From Nitrospirota bacterium (lineage in GTDB: Bacteria > Nitrospirota > UBA9217): 64,000 nucleotides of DNA. The notes beneath the pieces are model-generated. The model was given only the letters and a program-made list of their open reading frames with translations. It had not been told where the DNA came from and searched no databases. The stretch spans positions 6,246 through 70,245 of the forward strand of contig JAKAHZ010000004.1 of the NCBI GenBank assembly GCA_021814615.1. Reading direction: 5' to 3'. A program made the position numbers and the translations under genes. Positions within the stretch are counted from its first letter, which is position 1. Each line of letters begins with the position of its first letter. This document shows positions 1 to 54,307 of the stretch, in pieces.

Positions 1-1973
1 GCGGCCATGGGGATCCGAGCACTTGGACGATCACCGATCCGAACGGCGATGCGATCACGCCGACGCTGGTCGCTTACGGCTCCAGCTCGCAGCGGATCGC
101 GTTCTTCACTCCCACCGCCGCAGGCAAGTATACGGTTTCCGAGGGATCCAACTCCCTGTCGGTCTATGCAGGCTTTTTTGTCGGCGCGATCTCCGGCGGG
201 GCCGAGGACGGAAAGGGCAATCCTTCGGTCGTTGCCGACGGAGGCTGCATGATCTGCCATGACGATGCGACGGCGCCCGACGAATTCACGCCGTGGAAAG
301 GCACGCTCCACTCCAACTTCTTCGCCCGCGGCCTGAACGGCATCACCTCGAACAATAGCGCCTGCGTATCCTGCCATACGGTCGGTTATGACGAGTCGGC
401 GGCCGCGAAGGATGACGGCGGCTATTACAGCAAGCTGACGAACACCGCCACCAATCCCAACAAATGGCAGTATCCGGCCACGCGCAAGGCCGGCAACTGG
501 GCGGCAATGTGGGATCCCGCAACGGGAGCTCCGCAGGTCGCGCGGATGACCAATATCCAGTGCGAGAGCTGTCACGGACCGAACAACAGCGATGCGCATC
601 AGACGGCCCAGAATCCGACCAGTTCCTCGGCTTTCCGCGTCAGCTACGCCGCTGAAGTCTGCGCGGTCTGCCATGCCTCGGGCACGGGCCATCACCTCTA
701 CTCGGAATGGCAGACGCTGAATCCCGACGAGAAGGACCCCGATGCTGTCGGCAGCACCAGCGAATTCGGCATGGGCCATTCGAACCGGCGCGCGGCGGTC
801 AGCATGGGCGCGGGCAGCAACTCCTGCAGGCGCTGCCATGCCGGCCAGGGCTTCCCGAACTTCCTCACGCAGCTGAACGACGGTTTCATCGGGAATCTCG
901 GAACCGATACGGTAAATCCCATCACGATCGACTGGGATGCGTCGAATGTGGAGCCCATCACCTGCACGGCCTGCCACGATCCGCATGACGCGACGAACCC
1001 GAACCAGTTGCGCGTCTACGGCACCACGCCGCTGCTTCCCTCGGGTTTTGCCGCTGTGGGCCTGGGCAAGGGCGCGCTCTGCATCACCTGCCACAACAGC
1101 AGGAACGGCGCCCAGAGCAGCAGCAACGTCAATACCTATCTGCACGAAGACAGCCAGCCCACGAATACGGGCCTGATGAACTACAACAAGGGCAATCCGA
1201 CGAGCTATAGCGCGCCGCATACCGCTTGCCAGGGCGACGTGTTCATGGGCCGGAACGCCTACTTCCAGGGCGCGGGAAACCTGCCCAAGCTCTCGAAACA
1301 TTCGTCCGTGGAGGATGCCTGCGTGGGATGCCATATGAAACTGAATCCCCAGACACACCTCTCCCATGGCGCTCCGGAAGTGAGCTCCCATGTCTTTTAC
1401 ATCACCAACGCGGACGCGCCGAAGCTCTGCGCGAACTGCCATAGCTCGAATGTGAACGGCGAAGCTCTCCAGGCGGGGGTGGAAGCCGCGCTCGAGGCGC
1501 TTAATACGCAGATGGGCAAGAACGTCCTGTCCAAGGCCACGAATACCGTTCTTAACGTCATTGCATGGGATCCGGCGTCGGATGCCTATTCCAGCGCAAC
1601 CGGCACGAACGGGCAGGTCGCCTTCAACCTCGACCTGACAACGGGCGTGAACAGCATGACCACGGCGTCGCTCTTCGAGATTCACGGACAGATCGGTTTT
1701 ATGGTCACGCTGACGAACCCGGTCACCATGGTCATGACGAACGGATCGACCAAATCACTCTCGACCTTCGGCATCCAGATGGGCAACCTGAAATCAGCGG
1801 CTACGGCAAGCTTCCCGGTTCTCTATAACAATAAGGCCGGCAGCCCCATGGTCAAGGCGGGATGGAACTACTTCCTGATCGAGGGAGACAAGAGCAAAGG
1901 CGTTCATAATCCCAGCTTCGTCCAGGGAGTGCTGAACAGCACGATCAGCATGGTCACGAGCACGAATAACTAA
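1..1973 (+). CDS. Multiheme c-type cytochrome, 5'-partial (paralog of the 2091..4799 gene)
   Basis: Frame 3 is open from position 3 with no stop. Its N-terminal part (TWTITDPNG...GKYTVSEG...PDEFTPWKGTLHSNFFARGLNGITSNN) aligns with the internal region of the downstream 902-aa paralog. About 8 CxxCH motifs (CVSCH, CESCH, CAVCH, CRRCH, CTACH, CITCH, CVGCH, CANCH). Confidence 0.85.
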   Translation, partial: GHGDPSTWTITDPNGDAITPTLVAYGSSSQRIAFFTPTAAGKYTVSEGSNSLSVYAGFFVGAISGGAEDGKGNPSVVADGGCMICHDDATAPDEFTPWKGTLHSNFFARGLNGITSNNSACVSCHTVGYDESAAAKDDGGYYSKLTNTATNPNKWQYPATRKAGNWAAMWDPATGAPQVARMTNIQCESCHGPNNSDAHQTAQNPTSSSAFRVSYAAEVCAVCHASGTGHHLYSEWQTLNPDEKDPDAVGSTSEFGMGHSNRRAAVSMGAGSNSCRRCHAGQGFPNFLTQLNDGFIGNLGTDTVNPITIDWDASNVEPITCTACHDPHDATNPNQLRVYGTTPLLPSGFAAVGLGKGALCITCHNSRNGAQSSSNVNTYLHEDSQPTNTGLMNYNKGNPTSYSAPHTACQGDVFMGRNAYFQGAGNLPKLSKHSSVEDACVGCHMKLNPQTHLSHGAPEVSSHVFYITNADAPKLCANCHSSNVNGEALQAGVEAALEALNTQMGKNVLSKATNTVLNVIAWDPASDAYSSATGTNGQVAFNLDLTTGVNSMTTASLFEIHGQIGFMVTLTNPVTMVMTNGSTKSLSTFGIQMGNLKSAATASFPVLYNNKAGSPMVKAGWNYFLIEGDKSKGVHNPSFVQGVLNSTISMVTSTNN

Positions 1974-19118: not shown

Positions 19119-19796
19119 TTATGAACGCCCGGCTCGCCGGAAAAGCGCGGGCAGAAGGGTAAAAAGGGCGAGGATCACCAGTGCAAGGAGCATCCTGCCG
19201 GAAAGGATATCACCGGCGGTCCTGATCGTTTCCAGCTGCATTCCCGCAAAGGCGAAGACCGCCGTTCCCGGAAGGATGCCGACGGCAGTGGTCCAGAGGA
19301 AGTCCTTGAGCGGGATGGACGTGAGGCCCGACAGGAAATTGACGAGAAAAAAGGGAAAGACGGGAATGAACCGGAGGGTGAGCAGGTACCGCCTGCCGTT
19401 CCGGTCCAGTTCTTCATTGAACCGCCTGAGCTGGAGGGCATAGGCCTGCTGCAGCCGGGCCCCGAGCAGGTGCCGGGCGGAAAGAAACGCGAGCGCTGCG
19501 CCCATGGTCGCGCCGAGATCGACGGCGGCAACGGCGGCCGCGACGCCGAAGAGATAGCCGCCTGCCACGGTCATGACCGCTGCGCCGGGGATCGAAAGCG
19601 CCGTGACGCATATATAGGCCAGGACGTACAGGAACAGAGCGGCTGCGCGATGGTTGTGCACGAAGAGCGCGAGCGTGTCGCGGTGCTTCCGGATGTTCTC
19701 GAAGGTGAGCAGATCGCCGACCCCCGCGAAACGGAGCGCGATGATCGCCGCGGCGAACAGGAGAAGCAGCGAGAGTTTTGCCGGCCGGGAGGTCAC
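19119..19796 (-). CDS. TVP38/TMEM64 (DedA/SNARE-associated) family membrane protein
   Basis: Multi-TM 225-aa protein with typical DedA-family topology. Overlaps the downstream gene by 4 nt. Confidence 0.6.
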   Translation of the reverse strand: MTSRPAKLSLLLLFAAAIIALRFAGVGDLLTFENIRKHRDTLALFVHNHRAAALFLYVLAYICVTALSIPGAAVMTVAGGYLFGVAAAVAAVDLGATMGAALAFLSARHLLGARLQQAYALQLRRFNEELDRNGRRYLLTLRFIPVFPFFLVNFLSGLTSIPLKDFLWTTAVGILPGTAVFAFAGMQLETIRTAGDILSGRMLLALVILALFTLLPALFRRAGRS

Positions 19797-21231
19797 GTGC
19801 GCCTCTTGCCGAAGAGGCGGGCGGCGATCTTCACCAGAGGATTCTTGCGCAGGCGGTCGATGTAGTAGTATTTCGCCGGCTGGCGGACCACGTCGGTGTA
19901 GGTGGGGTAGGCATGGATCATGGACGAGAGGTCGGTGAAGGGCCGGCGGAGATGGCGGAGGAGCTGGGCTTCATGGATTAGCTCGCCGGCCCGCTCTCCC
20001 AGGATGTGGGCGCCCAGCAGCATGCCGCGGCGGTCGCAGATGAATTTCGCCATCCCGAAGGAGGTGCTGTCGGTCCTGCTTCGGTCGATGTTCGCGTAGT
20101 CGTACCGGAGCACGGAGATCGATTCCCCGTGGAGCGTTCTCGCTTCCTCCTCGGTGATGCCCGCATGGGCGAGTTCGGGATCGGTGAAGGTGCACCAGAC
20201 CACCGTATTGTAGACCGCCCGCTTCCGGAAGGGCAAGAGGGCGTTCCGCGTTGCCGTGATGGCCTGGTATTCGGCCATATGGCTGAATTGATAGGGGCCC
20301 ACCACATCGCCGCAGGCATAGATGTTCCGGGCCGTGGTCCGCAGATACGCGTCGGTCCGGATGCCCTTCGCGCCGTAGGCGACGCCGGCGTTCTCCAGGT
20401 CAAGTCCCGCCGTGTTCGGCGCGCGCCCGACGGCGACGAGGAGTGCCGCGCTTTTCACCGTCTCGCGCCGACCCGAACGCTGCGCGGTCAGGTTCACCGT
20501 TTCCCCTTCCCGTGACACGTTCAGGACCCGTGTCTCCGGGAGGATCCGGATTCCTTCCTCCTGCAGGCGGCCGGCCAGCATGCGGGCGAGCTCACGGTCC
20601 TCATGCGGCAGGATGGCATCGTACTTTGCTATGACCGTTGTGGGTACGCCGAGGCGGGAGAAGGCCTGGGCCAGTTCGATGCCGACCGGACCGGCGCCGA
20701 GCACCGCGAGGGACGACGGGAGGTCTTCGATCGCGAAGATGTTCTCGTTCGTATAATAGGGGACGCTTTCGATGCCTTCGATCGCCGGAACTGCGGCGGA
20801 GGTGCCGGTGCAGATCATGAATTTCGACGCCGAGAGGACCGTGCCGTCCAGATCGACCAAGTGGTTGTCGAGAAAACGCGGGCTGCCGAAGAGCACGGCG
20901 ATGCCCGCCTTCTCGAAGACCGACGCGGGATGGCTGTCCGAGACCTTTTTGACTGCTGCCCGCGCATAGGCCATGGCGTTCTTCGCCGAAAGGACGGGAT
21001 TCCCGGCGAGCGACAGACCGTAGGTCTCCAGATGCCGGGTCTGGTGCGCAACGCGCGCCGCCTTGAGCAATGCCTTGCTCGGCACGCATCCCGCGTTGGT
21101 GCATTCGCCGCCGAGCAGGTTCTTCTCGATCATGGCGACCTTCTTGCCCATGCCGGCGGCGATCTTGGAGGTCACAAAGCCGGCTGCGCCGGCCCCGATC
21201 ACGATGAGGTCATAGTCATAGCGGGGCATGG
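19793..21231 (-). CDS. FAD-dependent pyridine nucleotide-disulfide oxidoreductase (dihydrolipoamide dehydrogenase / mercuric reductase-like)
   Basis: GXGXXG motif IVIGAGAAG. Redox-active disulfide motif GGECTNAGCVPSK. Start taken at the internal MPRYDYD. Confidence 0.8.
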
Positions 21232-21922
21232 TCTTCCTCCGGGATGCGGGCGGTAAAGGCGGGATCGGCAAGCAGCGCCAAGGTCCTTCTGCACGAGCCC
21301 GTCGAACCTGCGTTTCTGCGGGCAAGGTCCAAAAGGTCTTCGATGGTATCGACGTCCCGGAACTGCCGCAATTCACGGACCGTCAGGTTCGCCGAGTGCA
21401 GCCGCTCGCGGGTTGCCGCGAGGACCCGCGGTGTGCTCCAGGGGATGTTCCGGAAAAGCCCTGACCTGAATGACCCGCGCCGGAAGCCGATGAGATAGTA
21501 GCCGCCGTCCGCTGCCGGACCGATCACCGTATCAGCATCGTCAAGCGCCTGCGCTGCGGATTCGAGGATGCCGGCGGACAGATCGGGAATATCGCTGCCG
21601 ATAAGTATCGCCCCTTCCGATCCGGATGCGAAGGCCCGGCTGAAGGCATGGGCCATCCGCTCGCCCAGATCAGCGCCGGTCTGCGGCTGATAACGGCGAT
21701 GCGGGCCGAGCCACCGGGCCAGGTGGCCGGCCGCTTCAGCGGGATGGAATACGATGATGCAGGGATGGCCGGAGGCATCGATGGCATCGAGCATGTCCTC
21801 CACGCATGCCCGGTAGATCTTTTCCGTGCGGTCCCGTCCCAGGGACGCCGCAATCCGGGATTTGACCGGTTCGTGAAGGGGGGATTTGACGAAAAACAGT
21901 ATGGGAACGGTATCGCGCATGG
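21216..21922 (-). CDS. DUF2064 / rSAM-selenodomain-associated transferase 1-like (TIGR04282-like)
   Basis: ~235-aa nucleotidyltransferase-like fold (...ILFFVKSP...GGYYLIG...). Positioned in the cluster with the rSAM/Cys-rich and GT2 genes. Confidence 0.55.
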
Positions 21923-21993: not shown

Positions 21994-22839
21994 TCACCAG
22001 GACAGGAGATAGTCCGCGTCGCTGGTTTTGGCGGTCCGGGGATCGCCCTGGACGGGACCCATGGGAAGCACCACGCGCGACGCAATTGTCGCCTCTTCAG
22101 CCACTTGAGCGGGAATGCCTTTTCTCCAGGCATGGCCGAAGCCCGTGAGTACGGCCACTTTCATGCCGGGATTGTGCTTCCGATAGTTCAGGAGGTAGAA
22201 CGCCATCGACTTGTCCCACACCTGCTGGGCTTCGCAGAAGTGCAGGAATTCGCTGGATGAGCGATGTTCGTGGCCGCGATAGGCATCTCTGATGAACCGC
22301 TGGTAGGCGGGATCCACATTGCAGCTCAAGCCCGGGGGGAGCTGCTTCCGCAGTTTTTCCGGCAGAGCGTCGAATCCCTTCTTGGCGACGGCGTCGGAGA
22401 TGCTGTCGGGAATATTCAGGCCGATCAGGGGGATGCGGTGTTCGCGGGTGTACAGGAAAATATCGCGGTAGAGCGGCCAGGGCATGCGCCAATTTTCATA
22501 GTAATCGGGGAGGAACCGCTCGAGGGAGAGCGTTCCTCCGACCCAGGCATCAAGGGTCTTCTGGCTCTCGGCGCGAAACATCTCCAGCCCCACGGCAAAG
22601 GAGGTGTCGGTCTCGTGCAGGGCCTGAATGATGTCGAGTTCCAGCCGGTGCAGCTCGGGTTCGTCGTGCAGTTCCCCGATGTAGATGATGTCCGCGGTCC
22701 TCAGGTCGTCCATCATCGTTTCGAAGGAGACGGTTTTCCCGTCGCGGACGCGGAACACTCCGCCGTCGCTTTCCTGTCTGGCCGGAAGGAAGGCGACGAT
22801 GAGGAGCAGGCAGATGCCGATGATCAGAGCATACTTCAT
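21994..22839 (-). CDS. ChaN-like heme-binding lipoprotein (Cofac_haem_bdg / Tiki superfamily)
   Basis: Signal/lipoprotein N-terminus MKYALIIGICLLLIVA. ChaN-family motifs IIYIGELHDEPE and GFGHAWR. Confidence 0.6.
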   Translation of the reverse strand: MKYALIIGICLLLIVAFLPARQESDGGVFRVRDGKTVSFETMMDDLRTADIIYIGELHDEPELHRLELDIIQALHETDTSFAVGLEMFRAESQKTLDAWVGGTLSLERFLPDYYENWRMPWPLYRDIFLYTREHRIPLIGLNIPDSISDAVAKKGFDALPEKLRKQLPPGLSCNVDPAYQRFIRDAYRGHEHRSSSEFLHFCEAQQVWDKSMAFYLLNYRKHNPGMKVAVLTGFGHAWRKGIPAQVAEEATIASRVVLPMGPVQGDPRTAKTSDADYLLSW

Positions 22840-22973
22840 ACTTGATTGTGGCTCACCTCTGGGTCCCTGTCAAGGCGTCTGGGAGGGATAGATGTAGATG
22901 GCGATGAAAGGAACCGGGTGCTCTCCCCCGGTTGTGTTCAGCAGGCGACCGCCTGCGGTGTCGTCGAGCCTGT

Positions 22974-23935
22974 TCAGGAGGAACCCTGGCCCGCGGTGCA
23001 GCCGGCGCAGTGGCGCTGGAGGCGGATCGTTCTTGCCATGAGCCGGGCCCGGTCGAAGTCCCTGATATGGAGCGGCGACCCTTCGGGGAGAGGGATGCCG
23101 GCTGCAAGGTTGAAATCGCAATCGTAGAGCAGTCCGTTCCATCCTACGCTGATCAGTTTTCTGCACATGAGGCCATTGAGTGTCGCTGGATTGTAGGCAG
23201 CTTCGAGCGACCGGAGGTAGGCGTCGAGCCTTCCTTCCCGGTCCAACGCTTCGCGGAACCTTCCGACGGGCATGTTGGCGAAAGCATAGAGGCGGTTGAA
23301 ACTGATGCCGTAGCGCTCCGCCAGGGTATTCCGGAAACCCTGCTCCAGCGACGCCTGGGGCGGCGGCAGAACGGCGCCGCGCGGATTATATACAAGGCTC
23401 AGGGGCCTCCCGCCGGCAACGCCGAACCCGAGGCCGTTCAACTCCCGGAGCGCGGCAATGCTCTTGTGGAACACGCCGTTCCCCCGGACCGCATCGACGT
23501 TATCCTCAAGATACCAGGGAAGGGAGGCGACGATCTCCACGGCCTCATCGGCATAGAAGCGGGGCAGATCCTTGTGGCCGTCTTCGGAAAAGACCGCCAG
23601 GTTCGTCCGTACGATCACATGCCGGCTGAGCCTGCGGGCGGAGCGGACAAGGTGGCGGAAGAGGGGATGCAACTCGGGAGCGCCGCCGGTAATATCCAGG
23701 GCGAGTGAAGGCATCGCTGCAAGGACCGCGAGCACCTGATCCATCGTTTCGCGGACCATCACCTCCGAACGCCCCGGTCCCGCGGAGAGGTGGCAATGGG
23801 AGCAGGAAAGATTGCAGCGGTACCCGATGTTTACCTGCAGAACGGCGATATCCAGCGGATCGAGAGTGCGCGGCGGCGAGAGGCGCGCCTGTCCTTCAAG
23901 GGGAATGCTGTTCTTGTTAAGCGGGATGATCATCG
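22974..23935 (-). CDS. Radical SAM/Cys-rich domain protein (ArsS-like, TIGR04167-like); ends ...CAGCTAGQGSS-TGA and may read through via selenocysteine to 22938
   Basis: CNLSCSHC radical SAM motif. C-terminal Cys-rich HCAGCTAGQGSS followed by an in-frame TGA, then 11 more sense codons (TGSTTPQAVAC), then TGA. Start taken at the internal MIIPLNKN; the ORF extends upstream to 24113. Confidence 0.75.
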
Positions 23936-24030: not shown

Positions 24031-24756
24031 CTAGCGGTAGTACTTTGCCAGCTCTTCGGGAGGGACGCCCGCGCAGTAGAGGCATTGGAGCATCCAGTTA
24101 CGCGTTGTGGCACGAAGCACGCCTTCCCGTTCCCATCGCCTGGCCGAGGTGAGCGCCTTTTCCGGGAGCACGGCGATCCGGTCTCCCCGTTTCCTGATCC
24201 TCGCCATGAGCTCTACATCTTCCATGAGCGGAATCTCGCGGAAGCCTCCGATCCGTTCGAAATAGGCGCGTCTCAGGAAGATCGCCTGATCGCCGAAGGG
24301 GACCCTGGTGATCCGGGTCCTGCAGGCAACGTAGCGCTCGGTGATCCGGAAATACCAGCGTGAAGAATCGATGCCCAGGTCGAAACAGCCGCCGACGGAC
24401 AAGGGATCCAAGAGACAGGCGGCAATGAGCGAGTCGGCGTGTGCGGGGAGCAGGGTGTCTGCGTGGAGGAAAAGGATGACCTCTCCTGCGGCGCGGCTCG
24501 CGCCACGGTTCATCTGGATCGCACGTCCGGGGGCCGAGAGCAGAGAAACGACATCTTGAACATCCAGCGCGCTGAGCGTGCTTCCCTGCGGATCTCCGTC
24601 CACGACGATGATCTCGACCGGCAAACGGTCGCAGACAGCGGTGACGCGCCGGACTGTTCCGTTGATCCGGTTCTCCTCGTGCAGGACCGGGATGACGACG
24701 GAAAGGAACGTCGGCTGGAGTCCGGGTGCATCAGGGATGGCTGAAAGATGTTCCAC
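24031..24756 (-). CDS. Family 2 glycosyltransferase (rSAM/selenodomain-associated transferase 2-like, TIGR04283-like)
   Basis: GT2 signature VVIPVLHEE...IIVVDGDP. Length 241 aa. Adjacent to the rSAM gene. Confidence 0.65.
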   Translation of the reverse strand: MEHLSAIPDAPGLQPTFLSVVIPVLHEENRINGTVRRVTAVCDRLPVEIIVVDGDPQGSTLSALDVQDVVSLLSAPGRAIQMNRGASRAAGEVILFLHADTLLPAHADSLIAACLLDPLSVGGCFDLGIDSSRWYFRITERYVACRTRITRVPFGDQAIFLRRAYFERIGGFREIPLMEDVELMARIRKRGDRIAVLPEKALTSARRWEREGVLRATTRNWMLQCLYCAGVPPEELAKYYR

Positions 24757-25556: not shown

Positions 25557-27344
25557 TCAATACTTATGACAGTTCTTGCAGATATCCTTGGGCGCGTTCG
25601 CCGGATACCGGAAGAGCTTCATCGAATCGGAGCTGTGCGGATTGTGGCAGCTGGCGCAGGAGAAAGGCTTCCCTTCGCGAGCGGGGTCCCGTTCTTTCTT
25701 GCTCAGTTTGTGCGGTTTTCCGCCGTCGGCATGCTTCGGGATGCCGAGCGGATGGCCGCCGGTGCCGAATCCGGAGATGGCGTGTGGCTTCTTGGCTACG
25801 TCGTCGTGGCAGTCGAGGCAGACGAGCGAGGGCGCCTTGAGCAGGATGGCATAGAAATCCGACGAATGCGGCGTGTGGCAGGAGAGGCACATGCCGTCGG
25901 CGACGGGCGGATGCACGTTCTTCTTCGTGAATTCCGCCTTGTCGTGGCAGGTATAGCAGAGATCGGGGACCGCCGAAAGGAGGAGCCGTTCGTTCTTCGT
26001 TGAATGGGGGGTGTGGCAGCCCGTGCATCCCATCCCGACCGCGGCGTGAACGACCTGTTTCGTGAATTTGGCCTTGTCGTGGCAGGTGTAACAGAGGTCG
26101 GGCTGCGCTGAGAGAAGCAGCCGTTCGTTCTTTGACGAATGGGGGGTATGGCAGGCGGTGCATCCCATGCCGAGCGCGGCATGCACCACTTTCTCGGTGA
26201 ACTTGGTCTTGTCGTGGCACTGGTAGCAGAGCTCGGTTCCTTCGGCCTTCAGCAGCTTGCCGGTATCGGTCGAGTGGGGGCTGTGGCAGGCGGTGCATCC
26301 CATGCCGATTGCCGCATGCACGACTTTCTCGGTGAACTTGGCCTTGTCATGGCAGGTGTAGCAGAGGTCGGCGCCGTCAGCTTTCAGGAGCTTGTCGGCC
26401 TTGGTCGAATGAGGGCTGTGGCAGGCGGTGCATCCCTTGCCCAGAGCGGCATGGACCGTCTTGTGCGTGAACTGCGCCTTGTCATGGCACTGGTAGCAGA
26501 GCTCCGGCGCCTCGGCTTTCAGGAGCTTGGGCGTGGCGGTTGAATGGGGATTGTGGCAGGATGTGCAGCCCATGCCGATGGCGCCGTGGACGGTCTTCTG
26601 CGTGAACTTGGATTTGTCGTGACACTGGTAGCAGAGCTCGGCGCCTCCGTTTTTCAGCAGTTTCTCCGATGACGTGGAATGGGGATCATGGCAGGCGGTG
26701 CATCCCATGCCGATGGCCGCATGGACCGTCTTCTGCGTGAACTTGGACTTGTCGTGGCACTGATAGCAGAGCTCCGGCGGCTCGGCCTTCAGGAGCTTGG
26801 GCGTCGGCGTGGCATGGGGGGCATGGCAGGCGGTGCAGCCCATGCTGATTGCGGCGTGGACCGTCTTCTGGGTGAACTTCGACTTGTCGTGGCAGGTGAA
26901 GCAGAGCGCCGGCTGCTCCTCGTTCAGGAGCTTGGCGTTGTCCGAAGAATGGGGATTGTGGCAGCCGGTGCAGCCCATGCTGACGGCCGCATGGACCGTC
27001 TTGTTCGTAAAGGAGGCCTTGTCATGGCATTGATAGCAGAGCTCGGGCTGCTCGGCGGAGAGGCCCCGCTTGATATTGTTCGTGATCTTGTGCGGAACGG
27101 GGATCATGGCGCCCAGTCCGGTGTGGCAGGTGCGGCACCCCATGTCCAGCGCCGCATGGACGACCTTCTGTTTCGCCAGGCGGGAATGGCACATCAAGCA
27201 GTCCACTTCCTCGGCTTCTGCGGCAGGCGGCGGAAGGAGCAGCAGGAACGCAGCCAGTACCGCCAGAGCCGCCATACGCCGGAGCACTGCGGAGAACGGG
27301 CGCCTGCGGGCTGGATTCATTTCGAAATGATGTGCTGTAGCCAT
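25557..27344 (-). CDS. Tandem-repeat multiheme c-type cytochrome (~23 CxxCH; nine 45-aa diheme repeat units)
   Basis: Signal peptide present. Repeated unit KFT.KTVHAA.GMGCT.CH.PHS....KLLKAE..ELCYQCHDK. Ends CKNCHKY. Confidence 0.85.
   Translation of the reverse strand: MATAHHFEMNPARRRPFSAVLRRMAALAVLAAFLLLLPPPAAEAEEVDCLMCHSRLAKQKVVHAALDMGCRTCHTGLGAMIPVPHKITNNIKRGLSAEQPELCYQCHDKASFTNKTVHAAVSMGCTGCHNPHSSDNAKLLNEEQPALCFTCHDKSKFTQKTVHAAISMGCTACHAPHATPTPKLLKAEPPELCYQCHDKSKFTQKTVHAAIGMGCTACHDPHSTSSEKLLKNGGAELCYQCHDKSKFTQKTVHGAIGMGCTSCHNPHSTATPKLLKAEAPELCYQCHDKAQFTHKTVHAALGKGCTACHSPHSTKADKLLKADGADLCYTCHDKAKFTEKVVHAAIGMGCTACHSPHSTDTGKLLKAEGTELCYQCHDKTKFTEKVVHAALGMGCTACHTPHSSKNERLLLSAQPDLCYTCHDKAKFTKQVVHAAVGMGCTGCHTPHSTKNERLLLSAVPDLCYTCHDKAEFTKKNVHPPVADGMCLSCHTPHSSDFYAILLKAPSLVCLDCHDDVAKKPHAISGFGTGGHPLGIPKHADGGKPHKLSKKERDPAREGKPFSCASCHNPHSSDSMKLFRYPANAPKDICKNCHKY
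25941..27155 (-). repeat. 135-nt tandem repeat array (about 9 units) inside the cytochrome gene
   Basis: The gtcgtggcac/gtcatggcag motif recurs at 25941, 26076, 26211, 26346, 26481, 26616, 26751, 26886 and 27021 with an exact 135-nt period. Confidence 0.85.
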
Positions 27345-27377: not shown

Positions 27378-28187
27378 TCAGTATTTATGGCAGTTCTTGC
27401 ACAACTCCATCGGCGTGCGGGCGGGATACCGGAACAGCCTGACAGAGTCGGAACTGTGGGGATTGTGGCAGCTCGTACAGGAAAAGGGTTTGCCCTGACG
27501 GGCGGGATCCATCTTCTCCTTCTTTTTTCCTTCCGGTTCTTTTTTCTCCTTCTTTTCGGCCTTGGGCAGGCCCAGGGAATGCCCGTTGCCGCCGAACCCC
27601 GCGAGGGCATGGGGTCTCTTGGCGACTTCCTCATGGCAGTCGAGGCAGATCACGGACGGAGCCTTCTGAAGCAGGGCATAATTATCCGAGGAGTGGGGAT
27701 CGTGGCAGACCAGGCACATTTTATCCGCGACGGGCGGATGGACGTTCTTCTTCGTGAATTCCGCTTTGTCGTGGCAGTTCATGCACAGGTCGGGCACCGG
27801 AGCGATCAGGAGCTTCTCGTTGTCCGATGCATGGGGATTGTGGCATGCAGTGCAGCCCATGCCGATGGCAGCATGAACGACCGTGTGGGTAAACTTCGCC
27901 TTGTCGTGGCATCCATAGCAGAGCTCGGGCTGGTCCGCGGAAAGGCCTTTGGCGAAGGAGGTGGTTTTCTTGTGCGGCACCTTGAGCGCGTCATCGATGC
28001 CGCTGTGGCAAGCCGGGCAGCCCATGGAGACCGCAGCATGCACGACCTTCTTCTTGGCCGTGAGGCCGGCATGGCACTTGGAACAGTCGACCTCCTTCTT
28101 TGCCGGCGCTTCTGCAGCTGATGAGGGAAGGACGAAGAACAGGGAAACGATTGCCGCACTCAGGGCACAGCTGAGAAATCTGCGCAT
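27378..28187 (-). CDS. Multiheme c-type cytochrome (9 CxxCH), short paralog of the 595-aa repeat cytochrome
   Basis: Signal peptide present. Same diheme module and an identical C-terminus CKNCHKY. Confidence 0.85.
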   Translation of the reverse strand: MRRFLSCALSAAIVSLFFVLPSSAAEAPAKKEVDCSKCHAGLTAKKKVVHAAVSMGCPACHSGIDDALKVPHKKTTSFAKGLSADQPELCYGCHDKAKFTHTVVHAAIGMGCTACHNPHASDNEKLLIAPVPDLCMNCHDKAEFTKKNVHPPVADKMCLVCHDPHSSDNYALLQKAPSVICLDCHEEVAKRPHALAGFGGNGHSLGLPKAEKKEKKEPEGKKKEKMDPARQGKPFSCTSCHNPHSSDSVRLFRYPARTPMELCKNCHKY

Positions 28188-40332: not shown

Positions 40333-41391
40333 CTATGCGGGTTGGCAATGCGGTGATCCCTTGGAGGGGAAGAGCCGGGCCGCAGCCATCCAAATCAGGA
40401 GGGGCGCGACCATACCGAAGATGCGTGCGGACCAGAGAATCTTTGTGAGGAAAGCCGGGTCCGGCCCCCGCCACGCAAAGACGATGCCGGAACAAAGGAC
40501 GGTCAGAAGGTGCTGCAGCGAGAGCAGCAAGAAGCCTGTCGCGACACGTTTGGCCTGCGTCGCTCGTCGGACCGAGCGGGCATTCGCCGCGAAGAGCACC
40601 GACAAGAGCACGGCATTCAGGATATCGTAGGTAAGGTCGCTGTGCAGGGTGCCTGCCGCCGTTCGGAACAGGATGATCCTTCCCTCGGCGGAAACCGTGA
40701 GGCTGCTCGGGACGGCGCCGATGAGGGCGTTTGCCGTTGCGGCGATGAGTACCGCGTAGCGTTCGATCAGCAGATGAATGGCCCCGAACGCGGCGATGCT
40801 CGCGAGGATGCAGGAGAAGACCGTTCGCGCCGCCGCGCTGGTAAGCGGGATGCTCTTGTTGACCCAGAGGAACCAGGTCGCGAAGACGATGACGGCAAAT
40901 GCGCCCTGCAACAGGTAGACATGCACGAGGTCGAACAGGTTGTTTGCATAATGGCCTACCATGCCGAGTACGCCGATCCGCAATATGTTCAGGGCCATGA
41001 TGACGAAAAATCCGGTCAGAATCCCTGCAAGGCGGTAGGCGCGGGTGTGCGAACGGAACGGCAGCACGCCTGCGCAGTAGATGGCGAAATACTGAAGGGC
41101 GGTGCATTCATGGGTTATCTCCATGGGAAAGTCGTAGAGGGTCAGGATCGTTCCCGAGAGCGCGGCGGGAATAGAGAACAGGCTCCAGAACCGGTAAGCA
41201 AGATAGGCAGTAAAGGGCTTTACCCAGTCGAATATTCCCCAAGGAGACTGCGAAAGGCAGAAAAATGCCGTCAGGAAAAAAAGAAAGGTAAGGATGAACC
41301 TGCGGTCGATGCTGAAGAGGCGCGGTGTGTCGTTCTGATTCTGCATGGTTGCAAACGTCTCTGCCGGGGCGGCGGTCGTCTGAATTCGCAC
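40333..41391 (-). CDS. Exosortase/archaeosortase-family polytopic membrane protein (putative)
   Basis: About 8 TM segments. Conserved Cys/Arg/Asn context (THECTALQYF, ALNILRIGVLG). Lies immediately downstream of a protein bearing a C-terminal TM + Arg-cluster sorting signal. Confidence 0.45.
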   Translation of the reverse strand: MRIQTTAAPAETFATMQNQNDTPRLFSIDRRFILTFLFFLTAFFCLSQSPWGIFDWVKPFTAYLAYRFWSLFSIPAALSGTILTLYDFPMEITHECTALQYFAIYCAGVLPFRSHTRAYRLAGILTGFFVIMALNILRIGVLGMVGHYANNLFDLVHVYLLQGAFAVIVFATWFLWVNKSIPLTSAAARTVFSCILASIAAFGAIHLLIERYAVLIAATANALIGAVPSSLTVSAEGRIILFRTAAGTLHSDLTYDILNAVLLSVLFAANARSVRRATQAKRVATGFLLLSLQHLLTVLCSGIVFAWRGPDPAFLTKILWSARIFGMVAPLLIWMAAARLFPSKGSPHCQPA

Positions 41392-41448
41392 GGGCCGGGA
41401 TCGTTCAGGACCCCGGCCCGTCCGTGTCTTCTGGGTTGTGCTTCCCGG

Positions 41449-47278: not shown

Positions 47279-47684
47279 CTGTACTACCTCCTCGTGGGTT
47301 ATAGCCCCCGTAGAGCATTTCCTTCACGCTTCCGCTCCCCTCCGGGGAGAGGGCAGGGGTGAGGCTCGTATCGGGAGCAAGGAGTAATCTCCCGGATCGC
47401 GGGAGAATCGACCTTACTCGTTTTAAGGAGCTAGAAAAATAGCATGACAGGGGGAGAAATGCAAGGAAAATTTCGGGATTATGGGAGCAGGAGCTGTCTT
47501 CTTCCGCAGGAGTTTCAGAAATTTGAATGTCGCTGCTGAGCCTCAGCCGCCATTCGATCCTGAGTCGCGCTATCCCCTAAAAATACCCTGTATTCTGCGA
47601 GTAATTACTTGACCGTAGCTGCATTTTTCAGCATAATAGCGCTACTTTTTTGAGCGTTGATGATCTTTTTATCCGGAGGGTTCG

Positions 47685-50600
47685 ATGCACAGGCATTTCT
47701 ATCGGAAAAACCATGTCCCGTATTTCATGGCATTGTTCGTTCTTCTTTTCTCGCTCTTTGCTTGCGGCGGAGGGGGAGGGGGCGGCGGCAGCGCGAACGA
47801 TGGCTTGAACACCGGCGGCACCACGACCAATCCCGGCGACACGATCGCCACGGGTCAGGCCAAGATCACCGGCACGGTCCAGCCGGATCCCAACAGCCCC
47901 ACGTCGGCAGCAGGCCAGAACTCAGGCGCCACGGTATATGTCGTCGGCCAGCAGGACAAGGCTGCGACGACCGATGCCAACGGCAACTTCACGCTCACCG
48001 TGGACGCCACGCTCACGGGCACGGTCCTGTCCAGCCCCAAGGGCTTCTTCGCTTCGCTCTTCAAGGCAGCGGGGGACGTGAAGCAGTACGGCCTCGTTGT
48101 TATCAGCTCCCAGAACAGCCACGGAAGAAAGACGGAAGTGCAGGTCACCGAGGGGCAGGCGAACAGCCTCGATACGATCTATATCAACACGGTCGGCTCG
48201 ATCACGGGCAAGGCATACCTCCAGGGCCAGACGGACCACACGGGTATCCGGGTCTACATCCCCGGCACCTCTTTCCAGGCCACGACGGATGCGAACGGGA
48301 ACTACAACATGACCGGTGTGCCCTCCGGCACCTATGACATCGTGCGGGCGGACTACCCCGGCACGGTCTATCACTATGCCGCGGTGGCGAAGGTCACGGT
48401 AGCATCGAATCAGGCGACCGCGCTTCCCGACATGCTGCTGCAACTGTCCACCGGACCGAATGGCAGCATCCTGATCAACAAGGGGGATGCCTACACCACG
48501 TCCAAGACCGTCACTGTGTCCATCGCGCCGAGCGCCAACGCCGTGCTGATGATGGTTTCGGAAGATATCAATTTCCAGGGAATTAGCTGGGAGCCGGTAT
48601 CCGCTGCGAAACAATACACCTTTGCAGGTTCATACGACGGCGGGAGCACCGCAAGGATTTATGCGCGGTTCTCGGATAGCAGCGCCCTGGAGAGCACGCC
48701 GGTCTCTGATGACATCTTCATCGATACGAATCCGCTTGCCACGATCACATCCCCGGTGAATTCAGGCGTCATCTCCGATACCAAACCGGCCTTCAACTGG
48801 AAATATGCACCGGCCGTCCAGATGCCGAACGCCCGGTATCACATCCAACTGACCACGGTGGCTGATACGGGTTTTTCCTCACCGCTGGCAGACGCGACGA
48901 CAGCTGCTAATGTTACGCAATATGCCTATGCCGGAGCGGCGCTGAATAATCTGAGCGGCTATATCTGGCGCGTGGCGATGGTTGACGAGGCAGGGAAACA
49001 ATGGAGCTGGGCAGGACCATGGTCTTTTTCGATCGATCTGAGCACGGTCACGCTGTTGAAACCGGATTTTGGCTCATATGTCAATAAGGCTGCGAACGAC
49101 ACAGGCATCACCTTCATGTGGCAGGCGAATGCGAATGCCTCCACCTATGAGCTTGCGTTGTGTCGAAACGATGCAAGTCTGTCCTGCGGAACGGCATATA
49201 CGGTAACTGCGCCCGGCATCAGCAAGCAGATATTGCCGATCAGTACAGGTGATGGTTTATATAATTGGGCTGTAACGCCGATCGACGCAAACGGAGTCAG
49301 GGGTAAGCGATCCGATGTGTGGCAATTCGATCTTGACAAGACCGTTCCGGGAATCGTTCTTGTCAGTCCATCGGGTGGCGCGCAGAACGTATCAAAACTG
49401 TCCCCGATCACCGTGCAGTTTGACGACGCTTTAGACGGCTCTACGATCATCAGCCCCGCGACGAATTTCACGCTGAACAGCGGAGCCGTTCCGGGAACCG
49501 TAAGCTATTCAGTATCCGCAAATACCGCGACATTCACCCCGGCAAGCACGCTGGGCTTCGGAGTGACCTATGCGGCCACCGTTACGACAGCGATAAAGGA
49601 CCCGGCAGGAAACGCTCTCTTCTCCGGACAGACATGGACCTTTTCCACGAAGAACGTTCCTGAACAGTGGACGTTTGCTGCCGATGGCGGATCGTCAAGT
49701 TTGAACTACAGTACTGCCAACGAAGCGGATACGCCGCAAATGGCTGTTCTCGGCAATGGTTTGTTCGCCTTCTGGTCGGAAGCAGGAAATATTCGCGGCT
49801 CGGTTTATAGCGGAAGTACCTGGTCGTTCATCGATGGTGGCGGAGCGACAAGTACCATATCAAGCGCCGGCGGATATCCCCGGCCTGCCGTGTACGGCAA
49901 TGAGTTGTACTTGTTGTGGATATCCGGTGGAACCGTCAACATGAAGAAATACGATGCAAACGGTTCCTGGACTTCTGTTTCAGGCGGTGCAATGGGATTC
50001 AATTATGATTATATGAAAACGTCCAGTGGAAATGCCATTGCAGCTGCCAACAAACTCTATGCGATATGGAGCGAAAATAACAATTCGAGTATTTTGCAGA
50101 TTCGGGCGAAAGTGTATACTGCGGGAACGTTCTCGTTCATTGACGGCGGAGGCGCGAATGGGATTAATTATGATCCTACTCGTATTACCAGCGGTTCGCC
50201 TGCGGCTGTCGCGATGAATGACAAGCTGTATATTGCATGGACGGAAAGGAATGTCTCAGGAATCGATCAGATCAGGATAAAGGTGTACAACGACAGTACT
50301 GCGACGTGGTCGTTCATTGATGGCGGCGGCGCGAACGGAGTGAATGCTGACGGGACGAAAAACGCAGCGTATCCTTCGCTGGCTTTCATGGGCAATACGC
50401 TTTATGCTTCATGGGCCGAGCAGGGTGCGTCTGTAAATCAGATTCGGGTCGCTGCATATTCGAGCGGGACCTGGTCGTTTATCGATAACGGTGGCATAAA
50501 CAAGAGTCCGACGAATCAAGCGTGCAATCCTAAGCTTGCTGTCTTGAGCGGAGTGCTCTATGCAACCTGGGCGGAAGGAATGTGCATATATGATCCGAAT

Positions 50601-50810
50601 GGAGATGAAATTCGAGTTGCGGCATTCGGCAATGGGTCATGGGCATTCGTGGATGGCGGAGCAGTAACGGGGCTGAATCTTGATTCTACGAAAATGGCCT
50701 ATGCGCCTCAGATTACGATCTATAACAATAAACCCTATATAACGTGGGCTGAAACGAATGCCAGCACGGGCACATCGCATAATCAAGCATTGGTAAAGGT
50801 CGGGCAGTGA
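47685..50810 (+). CDS. Large surface lipoprotein paralog 1 (poly-Gly linker, CarboxypepD_reg-like domains, Ig/FN3-like domains, C-terminal beta-propeller-like WSFIDGGG repeats)
   Basis: Lipobox LFSLFAC followed by GGGGGGGG. N-terminal ~330 aa shared with the two downstream paralogs. Six C-terminal repeats of the form LY..W.E...IR...Y...TWSFIDGGG. The start may instead be the internal MALFVLL. Confidence 0.75.
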   Translation: MHRHFYRKNHVPYFMALFVLLFSLFACGGGGGGGGSANDGLNTGGTTTNPGDTIATGQAKITGTVQPDPNSPTSAAGQNSGATVYVVGQQDKAATTDANGNFTLTVDATLTGTVLSSPKGFFASLFKAAGDVKQYGLVVISSQNSHGRKTEVQVTEGQANSLDTIYINTVGSITGKAYLQGQTDHTGIRVYIPGTSFQATTDANGNYNMTGVPSGTYDIVRADYPGTVYHYAAVAKVTVASNQATALPDMLLQLSTGPNGSILINKGDAYTTSKTVTVSIAPSANAVLMMVSEDINFQGISWEPVSAAKQYTFAGSYDGGSTARIYARFSDSSALESTPVSDDIFIDTNPLATITSPVNSGVISDTKPAFNWKYAPAVQMPNARYHIQLTTVADTGFSSPLADATTAANVTQYAYAGAALNNLSGYIWRVAMVDEAGKQWSWAGPWSFSIDLSTVTLLKPDFGSYVNKAANDTGITFMWQANANASTYELALCRNDASLSCGTAYTVTAPGISKQILPISTGDGLYNWAVTPIDANGVRGKRSDVWQFDLDKTVPGIVLVSPSGGAQNVSKLSPITVQFDDALDGSTIISPATNFTLNSGAVPGTVSYSVSANTATFTPASTLGFGVTYAATVTTAIKDPAGNALFSGQTWTFSTKNVPEQWTFAADGGSSSLNYSTANEADTPQMAVLGNGLFAFWSEAGNIRGSVYSGSTWSFIDGGGATSTISSAGGYPRPAVYGNELYLLWISGGTVNMKKYDANGSWTSVSGGAMGFNYDYMKTSSGNAIAAANKLYAIWSENNNSSILQIRAKVYTAGTFSFIDGGGANGINYDPTRITSGSPAAVAMNDKLYIAWTERNVSGIDQIRIKVYNDSTATWSFIDGGGANGVNADGTKNAAYPSLAFMGNTLYASWAEQGASVNQIRVAAYSSGTWSFIDNGGINKSPTNQACNPKLAVLSGVLYATWAEGMCIYDPNGDEIRVAAFGNGSWAFVDGGAVTGLNLDSTKMAYAPQITIYNNKPYITWAETNASTGTSHNQALVKVGQ

Positions 50811-50846
50811 TCACGTGCTGTGTATCAGGAAGACAGGAATACATTC

Positions 50847-50874
50847 GAGGGGCCTTCGGGCCCCTTTTTTTATT
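50847..50874 (+). terminator. Rho-independent terminator after paralog 1
   Basis: Hairpin gaggggcc-ttcg-ggcccc followed by tttttttatt. Confidence 0.8.
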
Positions 50875-51012
50875 TGGTTCATTTTTGGGAATGGTCTCAA
50901 ACCACAGATTGATATCGCCGAAAAATACCCCGGCATTCTGTGAATTATCCCTTGACCGGAAATGCAGGATAATGAATAATACGGCCCACTGTAGAGCTAT
51001 TCCAGTTCGTCG

Positions 51013-54000
51013 TTGCCGATCAGTCGGCGAAGCACTAGGAGGAACCGTATTATGGATCGTCGGAAACACGTATCACTCTGGACGTTGACTGCCCTTATCA
51101 TCGCACTATCCCTTATTCTCACCGCATGCGGAGGCGGAGGGGGCGGCGGCGGAAGCACTGACGGCACGACGTCGGGCTCGACCAACACAACCACGTCGAC
51201 GGGTCCCACGGGAACGAATCCCGATGTCATTCCCGCGGGCCAGGCCAAGATCACCGGCACCATCCAGCCCGATCCGGCGGACACCTCGGCCAACGGCCAG
51301 CAGGCCGGCGCATCGGTCTATGTCATCGGTCAGCAGAACAATGCTGCGACCGCTGACGCGAACGGCAATTTCACCCTCACCGTCGACGCTACGCTCACCG
51401 GCACGATCCTGCAGGCCCCGTCGTTCTGGGCCAAGATCTTCGGCGCAACGGCGACGGCCAAGCAGTTCGGCCTCGTGGTGCTGAGCTCGGCAAAAGGCCA
51501 CGGCAAGAAGACCGAGGTACAGGTGACCGAAGGCCAGGTTAATACGCTCAACACGATCTACATCAACACGGTGGGCCAGATCTCGGGCAAGGCATTCCTC
51601 CAGGGCCAGGCGGACCACACAGGCATCCGCGTCTACATCCCCGGCACCTCCTTCCAGGCAACGACCGACGCTGCGGGCAACTATGTGATGAGCAACGTAC
51701 CGTCGGGCAGCTACGACCTGGTTCGCGCGGACTATCCGGGGACTGTGTATCACTATGCCGTGGTCGCGAAAGTTACGGTCAGCACGAACGCAACAACGAC
51801 GCTGCCCGATATGCTCCTGCAGACCAATGTGGGTGCAAGCGGCAGCGTGTTGATCAATAATGGAGCCGCATACACGACTTCAGCCGCAGTGAAGCTCTCC
51901 ATTGCGCCAACGGATAGTGCAGTGCTGATGGCGGTGTCCGAAGACGCATCTTTTACCGGCACGCTGACCTGGGAGCCCGTGACGCCGACGAAGAACTATA
52001 CCTTCTCCGGTTCTTATTCCCCGGGGAAAACTGCGAACATCTATGTGAAATTCGCCGACATGAGCGGTCTTCCTACCGCGGGGTCTGCTTCCGCTTCCAT
52101 CTATATTGACACCGATCCGAAGGCGACGGTTACTGCGCCGGTGAATGCGGGCACCATCGCAAACACGAAGCCCCAGCTTTCCTGGTCCTATACACCGCCC
52201 ATGCCGAGCCCCAAATACCACGTGCAGGTGGCTACCGATGCTGCTTTTGCGTCGATTGTGGCCGGCCAGGATCAGACAAACTTGACCCAGGCGCAGTACA
52301 CGCTCTCATCGGCGATTCAGCAGGGGACCTATTACTGGCGGGTAGCAATCATCGATAGCGCCGGTACGCAATGGAACTGGGCGGGACCCTGGTCCTTCAC
52401 GATCAACCTGAGCTCGGTTACCCAGAACGCTCCTGCGAACGGCAGCTTCACCATGGTTACGACGCCCACGCTGACCTGGAGCGCCAACCCGAATGCAGCC
52501 TCCTACATCGTGAGCCTGGCGACAAACTCGGCGCTTACCGGCAGCACGACGTTTACGACCGCGCAGACCAGTTACACGCTTCCCGCGCAGGCAGACGGAA
52601 CGTATTATTGGGCAGTCACGCCGGTAGATATCTTCAGCATCCAGGGAACCCGTTCCACGGTATGGAGCCTGGTGATCGACACGACGGCGCCGGCGGGCAG
52701 CGTCGTGATCAATGAGAAACCGCTGGTCAGCAGCACGAGCTCGACCATGGGTGCGACGGTCACGCTCCAGCTCTCGGCAACCGACACCTACGGCGTTGCG
52801 GCGTACTTTACCCGGGGGTATATCGGCACACCGCCGCTTGCGGATGATCCGGGTTGGGTCTCTATCACGAACGCTCCCACGAACTATTCCGCACCGAATG
52901 TTTCGTTCACACTTTCTGCGGGGAGTGGTGTGAAATACGCTTATGTGTGGTTCAAAGACCAGGCAGGCAACGTCTCGGCTTCGCCGGTTTCGGACACAAC
53001 CAAGCAGATTGCCTTTTCTGCAATGACCGCGTACTCGAACGCCGCCAGGGATGTCGGCAAGTATCCAACCATGAAGATCGACAGCGGTGGCCGGCCCTAT
53101 CTTGGCTATTACGATTTGGATACCGCGACAGGGTTCGGCAGGCTTTCGTATACGCTTGTCACGAGCATAAGCAACTTCCCTAATATGAGCTGGAATACTC
53201 CGAATGTCGTCGACAGCCAGGCGAATACAGACATCGGGAGATGGTCGTCGATGGTTGTGGTCCCGAACTATGCGTTCTTCAGCTACCATGACGTTACGAA
53301 CACCAAACTGAAATTCGCCAGTTGCGTCTTGTCGTGCACGACCTACACGGTTGACTCCGGTTCATTCAGGAACCTCGGAAGATACTCTTCCCTGGCAATT
53401 CAGTCCGGAGCGACCTATACCGCACATATCAGCTATCTCGACTATAATGGCGGTGGACCGAATACCAATTTGAAATATGCCGCCGGCTTGAATAGTTCCT
53501 GGACTGTTACAACCCTTGATAGCACCACCAATGCTACGACTGCCAGTGTGAATGATCCTACGTCGATAGCCCTCGACGTAAACAATAAGGCGCATATCAG
53601 TTACACCGGCGGGGGGATCTGGGCGCTGAAATACGCCACAAACTCGTCCGGTACGTGGACGGTAAATCAGCTGGACTCGAAGGGATATAAATCGGCAATC
53701 GCGGTCGAGGCAACAACACCTCCCAAGGTTCATATCAGCTATTCGGGGACGGGAGGTATCAAATATGCCACCAATGCATCCGGTTCCTGGGTCACGACCG
53801 TCGTTGACGGAACAACTACAGCCGGCGCCGAGAAGACGGGTATTTTCATCGATGACCTCGGCTATGTACACATTGTGTATGTCTCGTCATTCAACGGGGA
53901 TCTGATGTATGCCACGAATAGATACGGTTCATGGACCCCTGTCCTGATCAATCCATCGTCGGCAACGTCAACTTTCGAGTCGCCGTCAATTGTGATCGAT

Positions 54001-54105
54001 ATGTCGACAGATATAATGTATGGGTTCAAACACAACTATGTACATATTGGTTACTATGATAGCTTTAACAAGAAAGCGATGCATTCCTACACGCAGTTGC
54101 CGTAG
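51013..54105 (+). CDS. Large surface lipoprotein paralog 2 (same N-terminal architecture, divergent C-terminal propeller with HI.Y...LKYATN repeats)
   Basis: Lipobox LILTAC followed by GGGGGGGG. N-terminus near-identical at protein level to paralog 1. Different C-terminal repeat family. Confidence 0.75.
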   Translation: MPISRRSTRRNRIMDRRKHVSLWTLTALIIALSLILTACGGGGGGGGSTDGTTSGSTNTTTSTGPTGTNPDVIPAGQAKITGTIQPDPADTSANGQQAGASVYVIGQQNNAATADANGNFTLTVDATLTGTILQAPSFWAKIFGATATAKQFGLVVLSSAKGHGKKTEVQVTEGQVNTLNTIYINTVGQISGKAFLQGQADHTGIRVYIPGTSFQATTDAAGNYVMSNVPSGSYDLVRADYPGTVYHYAVVAKVTVSTNATTTLPDMLLQTNVGASGSVLINNGAAYTTSAAVKLSIAPTDSAVLMAVSEDASFTGTLTWEPVTPTKNYTFSGSYSPGKTANIYVKFADMSGLPTAGSASASIYIDTDPKATVTAPVNAGTIANTKPQLSWSYTPPMPSPKYHVQVATDAAFASIVAGQDQTNLTQAQYTLSSAIQQGTYYWRVAIIDSAGTQWNWAGPWSFTINLSSVTQNAPANGSFTMVTTPTLTWSANPNAASYIVSLATNSALTGSTTFTTAQTSYTLPAQADGTYYWAVTPVDIFSIQGTRSTVWSLVIDTTAPAGSVVINEKPLVSSTSSTMGATVTLQLSATDTYGVAAYFTRGYIGTPPLADDPGWVSITNAPTNYSAPNVSFTLSAGSGVKYAYVWFKDQAGNVSASPVSDTTKQIAFSAMTAYSNAARDVGKYPTMKIDSGGRPYLGYYDLDTATGFGRLSYTLVTSISNFPNMSWNTPNVVDSQANTDIGRWSSMVVVPNYAFFSYHDVTNTKLKFASCVLSCTTYTVDSGSFRNLGRYSSLAIQSGATYTAHISYLDYNGGGPNTNLKYAAGLNSSWTVTTLDSTTNATTASVNDPTSIALDVNNKAHISYTGGGIWALKYATNSSGTWTVNQLDSKGYKSAIAVEATTPPKVHISYSGTGGIKYATNASGSWVTTVVDGTTTAGAEKTGIFIDDLGYVHIVYVSSFNGDLMYATNRYGSWTPVLINPSSATSTFESPSIVIDMSTDIMYGFKHNYVHIGYYDSFNKKAMHSYTQLP

Positions 54106-54174
54106 CCAAAGTAGCGTCAAGAGAAATATTTATTAACCCGACGTCGTCGGATATGGCATCGCAATAGCTGAATG

Positions 54175-54209
54175 AAAAGCCCGGGAGAATATCTCCCGGG
54201 CTTTTCTTG
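54175..54209 (+). terminator. Rho-independent terminator after paralog 2
   Basis: Hairpin gcccgggaga-atat-ctcccgggc followed by ttttcttg. Confidence 0.7.
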
Positions 54210-54307
54210 TTTCAGGTCCTTTTCACCGGGAATTATCACTTGACCTTCCGGGCGACTTGTTCAATAATAGCAGCCATCTCTAATGTACCCTGTCTTGGGG
54301 AGGGACC

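Follow-up and report, generated by a model that had tools for sequence, protein, structure and literature searches.

We found an in-frame UGA, at 22976..22974 on the minus strand of the 64-kb stretch of DNA analysed here (the window), that is very probably a selenocysteine (Sec) codon of an ArsS gene, served by a hairpin located downstream of it (probability roughly 0.86). We favour this reading because Sec and Cys codons alternate at the position among homologues, because conservation downstream of the UGA is of the kind seen in coding sequence, and because the downstream hairpin covaries and is linked to TGA-type genes. According to the proposed mechanism, the ribosome would pause at the UGA, and SelB-GTP-Sec-tRNA(Sec) would bind the GGUC apical loop of the hairpin that begins 17 nt downstream. 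Sec would then be inserted as residue 320 in place of termination, and translation would run through the hairpin for 11 codons to a second UGA at 22940..22938. The predicted product has 331 residues and ends with GSS-U-TGSTTPQAVAC. The gene comprises the following elements:

22977..23933, minus strand: arsS coding sequence up to the predicted recoded codon (319 codons, MIIPLNK...GQGSS)
22974..22976, minus strand: in-frame UGA of the putative GSS-U motif (GxxU), the site of the Cys/TGA census of homologous loci
22941..22973, minus strand: eleven codons after the predicted Sec (TGSTTPQAVAC), whose last 16 nt double as the putative SECIS hairpin
22941..22956, minus strand: putative bacterial SECIS hairpin, with the 5' arm GCAGGC (22956..22951), the loop GGUC (22950..22947) and the 3' arm GCCUGC (22946..22941)
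22938..22940, minus strand: UGA directly after the hairpin, the predicted true stop, in the same layout as in five homologous loci (L087, L090, L094, L107 and L132)

The profile matches assign the window gene to TIGR04167 (rSAM_SeCys), which is named 'arsenosugar biosynthesis radical SAM (seleno)protein ArsS' in NCBIfam. With Cys in place of the stop, the ArsS protein matched TIGR04167 with 407.4 bits (cutoff 300) over profile positions 6-302 of 303. It also matched PF12345/DUF3641 with 170 bits over positions 1-134 of 134, and PF04055 with 32 bits. The TIGR04167 and PF12345 profiles both align 3 residues beyond the UGA position. Both the radical SAM motif and the C-terminal, Cys-rich DUF3641 domain are present; the CxxxCxxC motif of the former reads CNLSCSHC, and its residues C40, C44 and C47 do not vary among the aligned sequences. 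No paper linking ArsS with selenocysteine came up in a literature search, and the connection was found via TIGR04167. Selenoprotein catalogues list a 'Radical SAM domain protein' under TIGR04167 with the motif GxxU and the example AAR34688.1, as a 'predicted' bacterial selenoprotein (PMC9312934, PMC13188914), and a TIGR04167 selenoprotein was also included in a metagenome survey in 2007 (PMC1976440). The window arsS therefore adds one more member to a selenoprotein family that is already known, and it represents no new recoding event or mechanism. It shares with TIGR04167 the UGA at G-S-S-[C/U], the CxxxCxxC motif, the DUF3641 domain and the TIGR04282 and TIGR04283 partners, but differs in that its ORF would read through the SECIS, which is a minority form, and in that a ChaN-like gene lies within the cassette.

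The arsS gene likely starts with the ATG at 23933, 319 codons before the UGA, and not with the GTG at 24113 at which the mechanically called ORF begins, because the public gene call is 319 aa long and the homologues have 311-327 aa. Up to the UGA, arsS is identical to this public gene call (P0001; contig DAIEQF010000019.1, GCA_027348025.1). Clustering at 90% identity groups this gene call with the GenBank entry MDA8099047.1, which comes from a 'Nitrospiraceae bacterium' MAG, is annotated as a 319-aa ArsS and ends at the UGA. Among solved structures, a PDB sequence search matched distant radical SAM cores but no ArsS.

The minus-strand arsS ORF reads ...HCAGCTAGQGSS and is followed by the UGA. 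In translation, the residues preceding this first TGA of the frame are ...RHCAGCTAGQGSS, also given as ...RLQRHCAGCTAGQGSS. A sequence-only reading of the window had proposed that arsS ends in a TGA at the place of the last Cys of its family, that 11 codons (TGSTTPQAVAC) remain open between this TGA and a second one, and that a GCAGGC-GGUC-GCCUGC hairpin with SECIS-like character and an fdhF-like apex begins 17 nt after the first UGA. The terminal codon was confirmed at 22976..22974, translation gave the same 11 codons, and the hairpin lies at 22956..22941; the comparisons described below bear out the remaining points.

We examined the DNA of 160 homologous loci (80 species-representative genomes and 80 metagenomes) and located the motif in 159. 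The codon after G-x-G-[ST/F/G]-[ST/G] is TGC in 73 loci, TGT in 21 and TGA in 65, so that the window TGA aligns with a TGC, TGT or TGA codon at the last Cys of the family in 159/159 loci. An ordinary terminator would be expected to appear as TAA and TAG too, and neither of these, nor a non-Cys sense codon, occupies the position in any of the 159 loci. At the protein level, the 120 closest clusters comprise 83 that end exactly at GS[ST] and 37 that carry Cys and a short tail. The conserved Cys positions of the C-terminal half are C257, C272, C309, C312 and the UGA-encoded residue 320, and we infer from this alignment that Sec320 stands in for the last of the five conserved Cys residues in DUF3641.

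The frame after the UGA reads ACA GGC TCG ACG ACA CCG CAG GCG GTC GCC TGC and then reaches the second TGA (22940..22938). Among 60 distinct TGA-type sequences, position +2 is Gly in all 60 (GGN, with a variable third base), position +3 is Ala or Ser in 59 (GCN or TCN), and position +4 is small or hydrophobic. The Cys-type proteins show the same pattern, with Gly at +2 in 93/93 and Ala or Ser at +3 in 74/93. One Cys-type homologue (P0002) reads GSSCTGSTTQQ..., and its tail GSSCTGSTTQQDGG and that of another homologue (P0003), GSSCTGATALQAVAADD, resemble the peptide predicted after the UGA in the window. We thus judge the codons after the UGA to be conserved like coding sequence, because the peptide stays constant while the wobble positions vary.

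The usual Sec-type form has a 6-residue tail, a stop in the stem base and a hairpin outside the ORF. In 48/60 TGA-type sequences, the stem base contains the real stop, which is mostly UAG and is five codons downstream of the UGA. The tail predicted for the window protein is instead of the U-x10-C type (12 residues), with the ORF running through the hairpin, a form found in 6/60 distinct sequences (the window and five others). UAG forms the base of the SECIS stem in most Sec-type genes (L002, L046 and others), as in UAGCAGGC...GCCUGCUG, which would place termination inside the very element that promotes Sec insertion.

The window hairpin alone folds at -10.2 kcal/mol, and none of 200 shuffled sequences folds as well. 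Within 36-41 nt of its GC-rich context, the folding is no better than that of shuffled sequences (z = -0.26 to -0.44); the single sequence is thus not above chance, and its significance rests on the comparison of homologues. Published constraints for bacterial SECIS elements are a loop of 3-9 nt on a stem of 4-16 bp, G in the first two loop positions, a UGA-to-loop distance of 16-37 nt and an MFE of -7.5 kcal/mol or lower (PMC13188914). The window hairpin lies within all four, having a 4-nt loop on a 6-bp stem, a loop that starts with GG and then U, and a spacing of 23 nt between UGA and loop, at the folding energy given above. Rfam contained no matching family, either at the gathering threshold over the whole window or in E-value mode over 22850..23050. 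We also considered an intrinsic terminator as the identity of the hairpin and ruled it out: no U-tract follows the hairpin, and a terminator scan was empty on the minus strand there.

We compared the hairpin region of the 60 distinct TGA-type sequences with that of 93 Cys-type sequences. The hairpin is conserved in 60/60 TGA-type genes, beginning 15-19 nt after the UGA (24 in one), and the consensus of all 60 sequences is UGA-N17-(A)GCAGGC-GGUC-GCCUGC(U). The window hairpin is exactly the commonest form among them. RNAalifold recovered the six-pair stem with compensatory changes at 3/6 pairs (23:40, 25:38 and 27:36). In the alignment, 93% of cells are paired, and shifting the 3' partners by 1-3 columns lowers this share to 24-40%; 14 cells carry double changes, and no column shuffle out of 500 matched the real alignment in pairing or in covariation score. 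Perfectly paired stems of 6 bp or more, 12-26 nt downstream, are found in 56/60 TGA-type but only 18/93 Cys-type sequences, and a loop starting with G-G/U in 53 TGA-type but 5 Cys-type sequences. The hairpin, which covaries in TGA-type homologues, is thus largely absent from Cys-type ones. It is kept both where it lies past the real stop (48/60) and where it lies inside the ORF (6/60), which indicates that the constraint acts on the RNA.

Cys-converted relatives show broken hairpins. One of them (L125) keeps GGUCGCCUGCUGA without the 5' arm, and the hairpin of another (L122, with TGT) is a degraded copy of the element of a TGA-type locus (L134). Judging from these remnants, the L125-like and L122 cases look like recent Sec-to-Cys conversions. 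Remnants of the SECIS are also retained by Cys-type genes with 12-residue tails (L125, L119, L104 and L127).

The GGUC apical loop is common to the window hairpin and the SECIS of Escherichia coli fdhF, for which the arrangement is UGA-N18-GGUC; a comparison with 5,419 E. coli genomes confirmed the 41-nt fdhF sequence. In both cases, a stem-loop lies directly downstream of a Sec UGA (a predicted one in arsS) inside the mRNA. However, the loop of fdhF follows the UGA by 18 nt and that of the window hairpin by 23 nt. Moreover, the upper stem of fdhF has a bulged U, whereas the window stem is a perfect, GC-rich helix of 6 bp with no extended lower helix. From its sequence, the putative window element resembles the fdhF element and is not the same element.

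We weighed three other explanations for the UGA. It might be a genuine stop of a 319-residue ArsS whose Sec trait has been lost or is unexpressed, leaving the hairpin as a relic. Gene callers and PGAP do give a 319-aa product (MDA8099047.1 is named ArsS without 'seleno'), and the window offers no Sec machinery: ARAGORN found neither a tRNA nor a tRNA-Sec in the 64 kb, and selA, selB and selD are absent among the 36 window ORFs scanned with NCBIfam. Nevertheless, a 64-kb window is expected to miss the sel genes by chance. After a loss of Sec, the hairpin and the frame would decay as they did in the Cys-converted L125 and L122, but here the hairpin is identical to the commonest form, and the reading frame past the UGA remains open and retains the conserved xG[AS] motif. 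Furthermore, as the Cys/Sec position is filled in 159/159 homologues, an enzyme cut short before it would probably not work. We therefore consider a genuine stop improbable. The search for a second long ORF of high GC3 that ends in UGA and is followed by a hairpin with a GG/GU loop yielded none in the window other than arsS.

It is very improbable that the UGA is suppressed without selenium, either by insertion of Cys via the Sec pathway under Se limitation or by near-cognate read-through with Cys or Trp. Cys is functionally accepted at the site in 94 homologues, and the identity of the inserted residue is not distinguished by sequence, but the conserved SECIS-type hairpin with its G-G/U loop is a specific signal for SelB-dependent decoding. 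A reassigned UGA conflicts with the many ordinary window ORFs that end in UGA, as the arsS ORF itself does at its final stop. Lastly, it is scarcely credible that the TGA arose through faulty sequencing or assembly or through decay into a pseudogene, although a single base change (TGC to TGA) would suffice. A sequencing error is unlikely because three near-identical members of the cluster, which come from independent assemblies, share this stop codon. In addition, each of the 65 independent TGA-type loci has a matching hairpin, and apart from this codon the gene is undamaged, with a score far above the family cutoff.

The function of a Sec-containing ArsS can be considered in the light of the Cys-containing enzyme. 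ArsS of the Synechocystis type, which contains Cys, adenosylates dimethylarsenite, DMAs(III), to 5'-deoxy-5'-dimethylarsinoyl-adenosine in arsenosugar biosynthesis (PMC13598754). The window protein belongs to the same family and presumably catalyses the same chemistry by analogy, but differs from it by a predicted Sec in place of the last Cys. We know of no activity assay of any Sec-form ArsS. In the AlphaFold2 model of the Cys-type homologue P0002, the pLDDT is 82 overall and below 50 for residues 318-332. This model suggests that the C-terminal Sec tail is probably mobile, and the low-pLDDT tail would fit a mobile arm with a role in binding the As(III) substrate or in redox cycling. Sec320 is plausibly an arsenic-binding or redox residue.

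We also considered, as a doubtful extension of the Sec reading, that the U-x10-C tail defines a functional subclass. The terminal Cys and Sec320 would then form a selenenylsulfide or As-chelating couple on the mobile arm and, together with the ChaN-like gene, would point to an altered ArsS pathway. Of the 106 distinct Cys-type tails, those that end in Cys are almost confined to the 12-residue class (9/14). The terminal Cys of the 12-residue tails may be a relic of a former SECIS, because at least one of these loci, L125, still has three parts of the earlier hairpin, namely its loop, 3' arm and UGA.

The genes around arsS lie on the same strand:

24031..24756, minus strand: TIGR04283-family arsenosugar-biosynthesis glycosyltransferase (GT2), the upstream partner (239 bits, cutoff 182)
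21994..22839, minus strand: ChaN-like gene, PF04187 (Tiki/ChaN haem-binding superfamily; 194 bits)
21216..21920, minus strand: TIGR04282-family (DUF2064) arsenosugar-biosynthesis glycosyltransferase, the downstream partner (187 bits, cutoff 134; limits from the public gene call)
19793..21229, minus strand: FAD-dependent pyridine nucleotide-disulphide oxidoreductase (MerA-like; family match)
19119..19796, minus strand: VTT/DedA membrane protein (family match)

The sequence-only reading had named partner genes of the rSAM/selenodomain cassette on both sides of arsS and an additional ChaN-like gene beside it. Both observations hold, as the TIGR04283 and TIGR04282/DUF2064 genes score above their cutoffs and the ChaN-like gene separates arsS from the TIGR04282 gene. 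A TIGR04283 homologue is found near arsS in 36/159 loci, many of which have short flanks. Homologues of the oxidoreductase and of the VTT/DedA protein are found near arsS in 29/159 and 12/159 loci, respectively, and these two genes may be part of an extended arsenic-related cassette.

No ChaN-like homologue was found in the flanks of the 159 other arsS loci, and we ruled out the ChaN-like gene as a conserved member of the cassette. A sigma-70-like site, TTGACA-17-CACAAT (22873..22845, minus strand), which is a consensus match, lies just upstream of this gene. The lack of homologues at the 159 loci and this promoter-like site of its own suggest that the ChaN-like gene was independently acquired and is independently expressed. 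The N-terminal sequence of its product, MKYALIIGICLLLIVAFLP, resembles a signal or anchor sequence and not a canonical lipobox.

The main value of these results lies in annotation. GS[ST] is the recorded C-terminus of the window gene product, of MDA8099047.1 and of 83 among the 120 closest clusters; on the Sec reading, such records omit the Sec residue and the tail, which amounts to a systematic truncation. The family-specific SECIS consensus, UGA-17 nt-GCAGGC-GGUC-GCCUGC, can be used for re-annotating ArsS genes, and the Sec-to-Cys conversions that it exposes leave recognisable hairpin remnants. The Sec reading would also imply that the Nitrospiraceae-like MAG uses selenocysteine.

Several other features of the window were observed. 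Three consecutive ORFs of 1048, 1036 and 998 aa at 47664..57280 (plus strand) have no NCBIfam match at E <= 1e-8. An exosortase-family protein at 40333..41448 (minus strand), with a weak XrtH-like match (64 bits, below the cutoff of 86 bits), adjoins unannotated ORFs. Large multihaem c-type cytochromes with regularly repeated CxxCH motifs are encoded at 25557..27344 (minus strand), 27378..28187 (minus strand) and 3..1973 (plus strand). One cytochrome, of 595 aa, is built of near-identical repeats of about 35 residues (...LCYQCHDKSKFTQKTVHAAIGMGCTACH...), and the antisense strand of the cytochrome repeats also yields long spurious ORFs.
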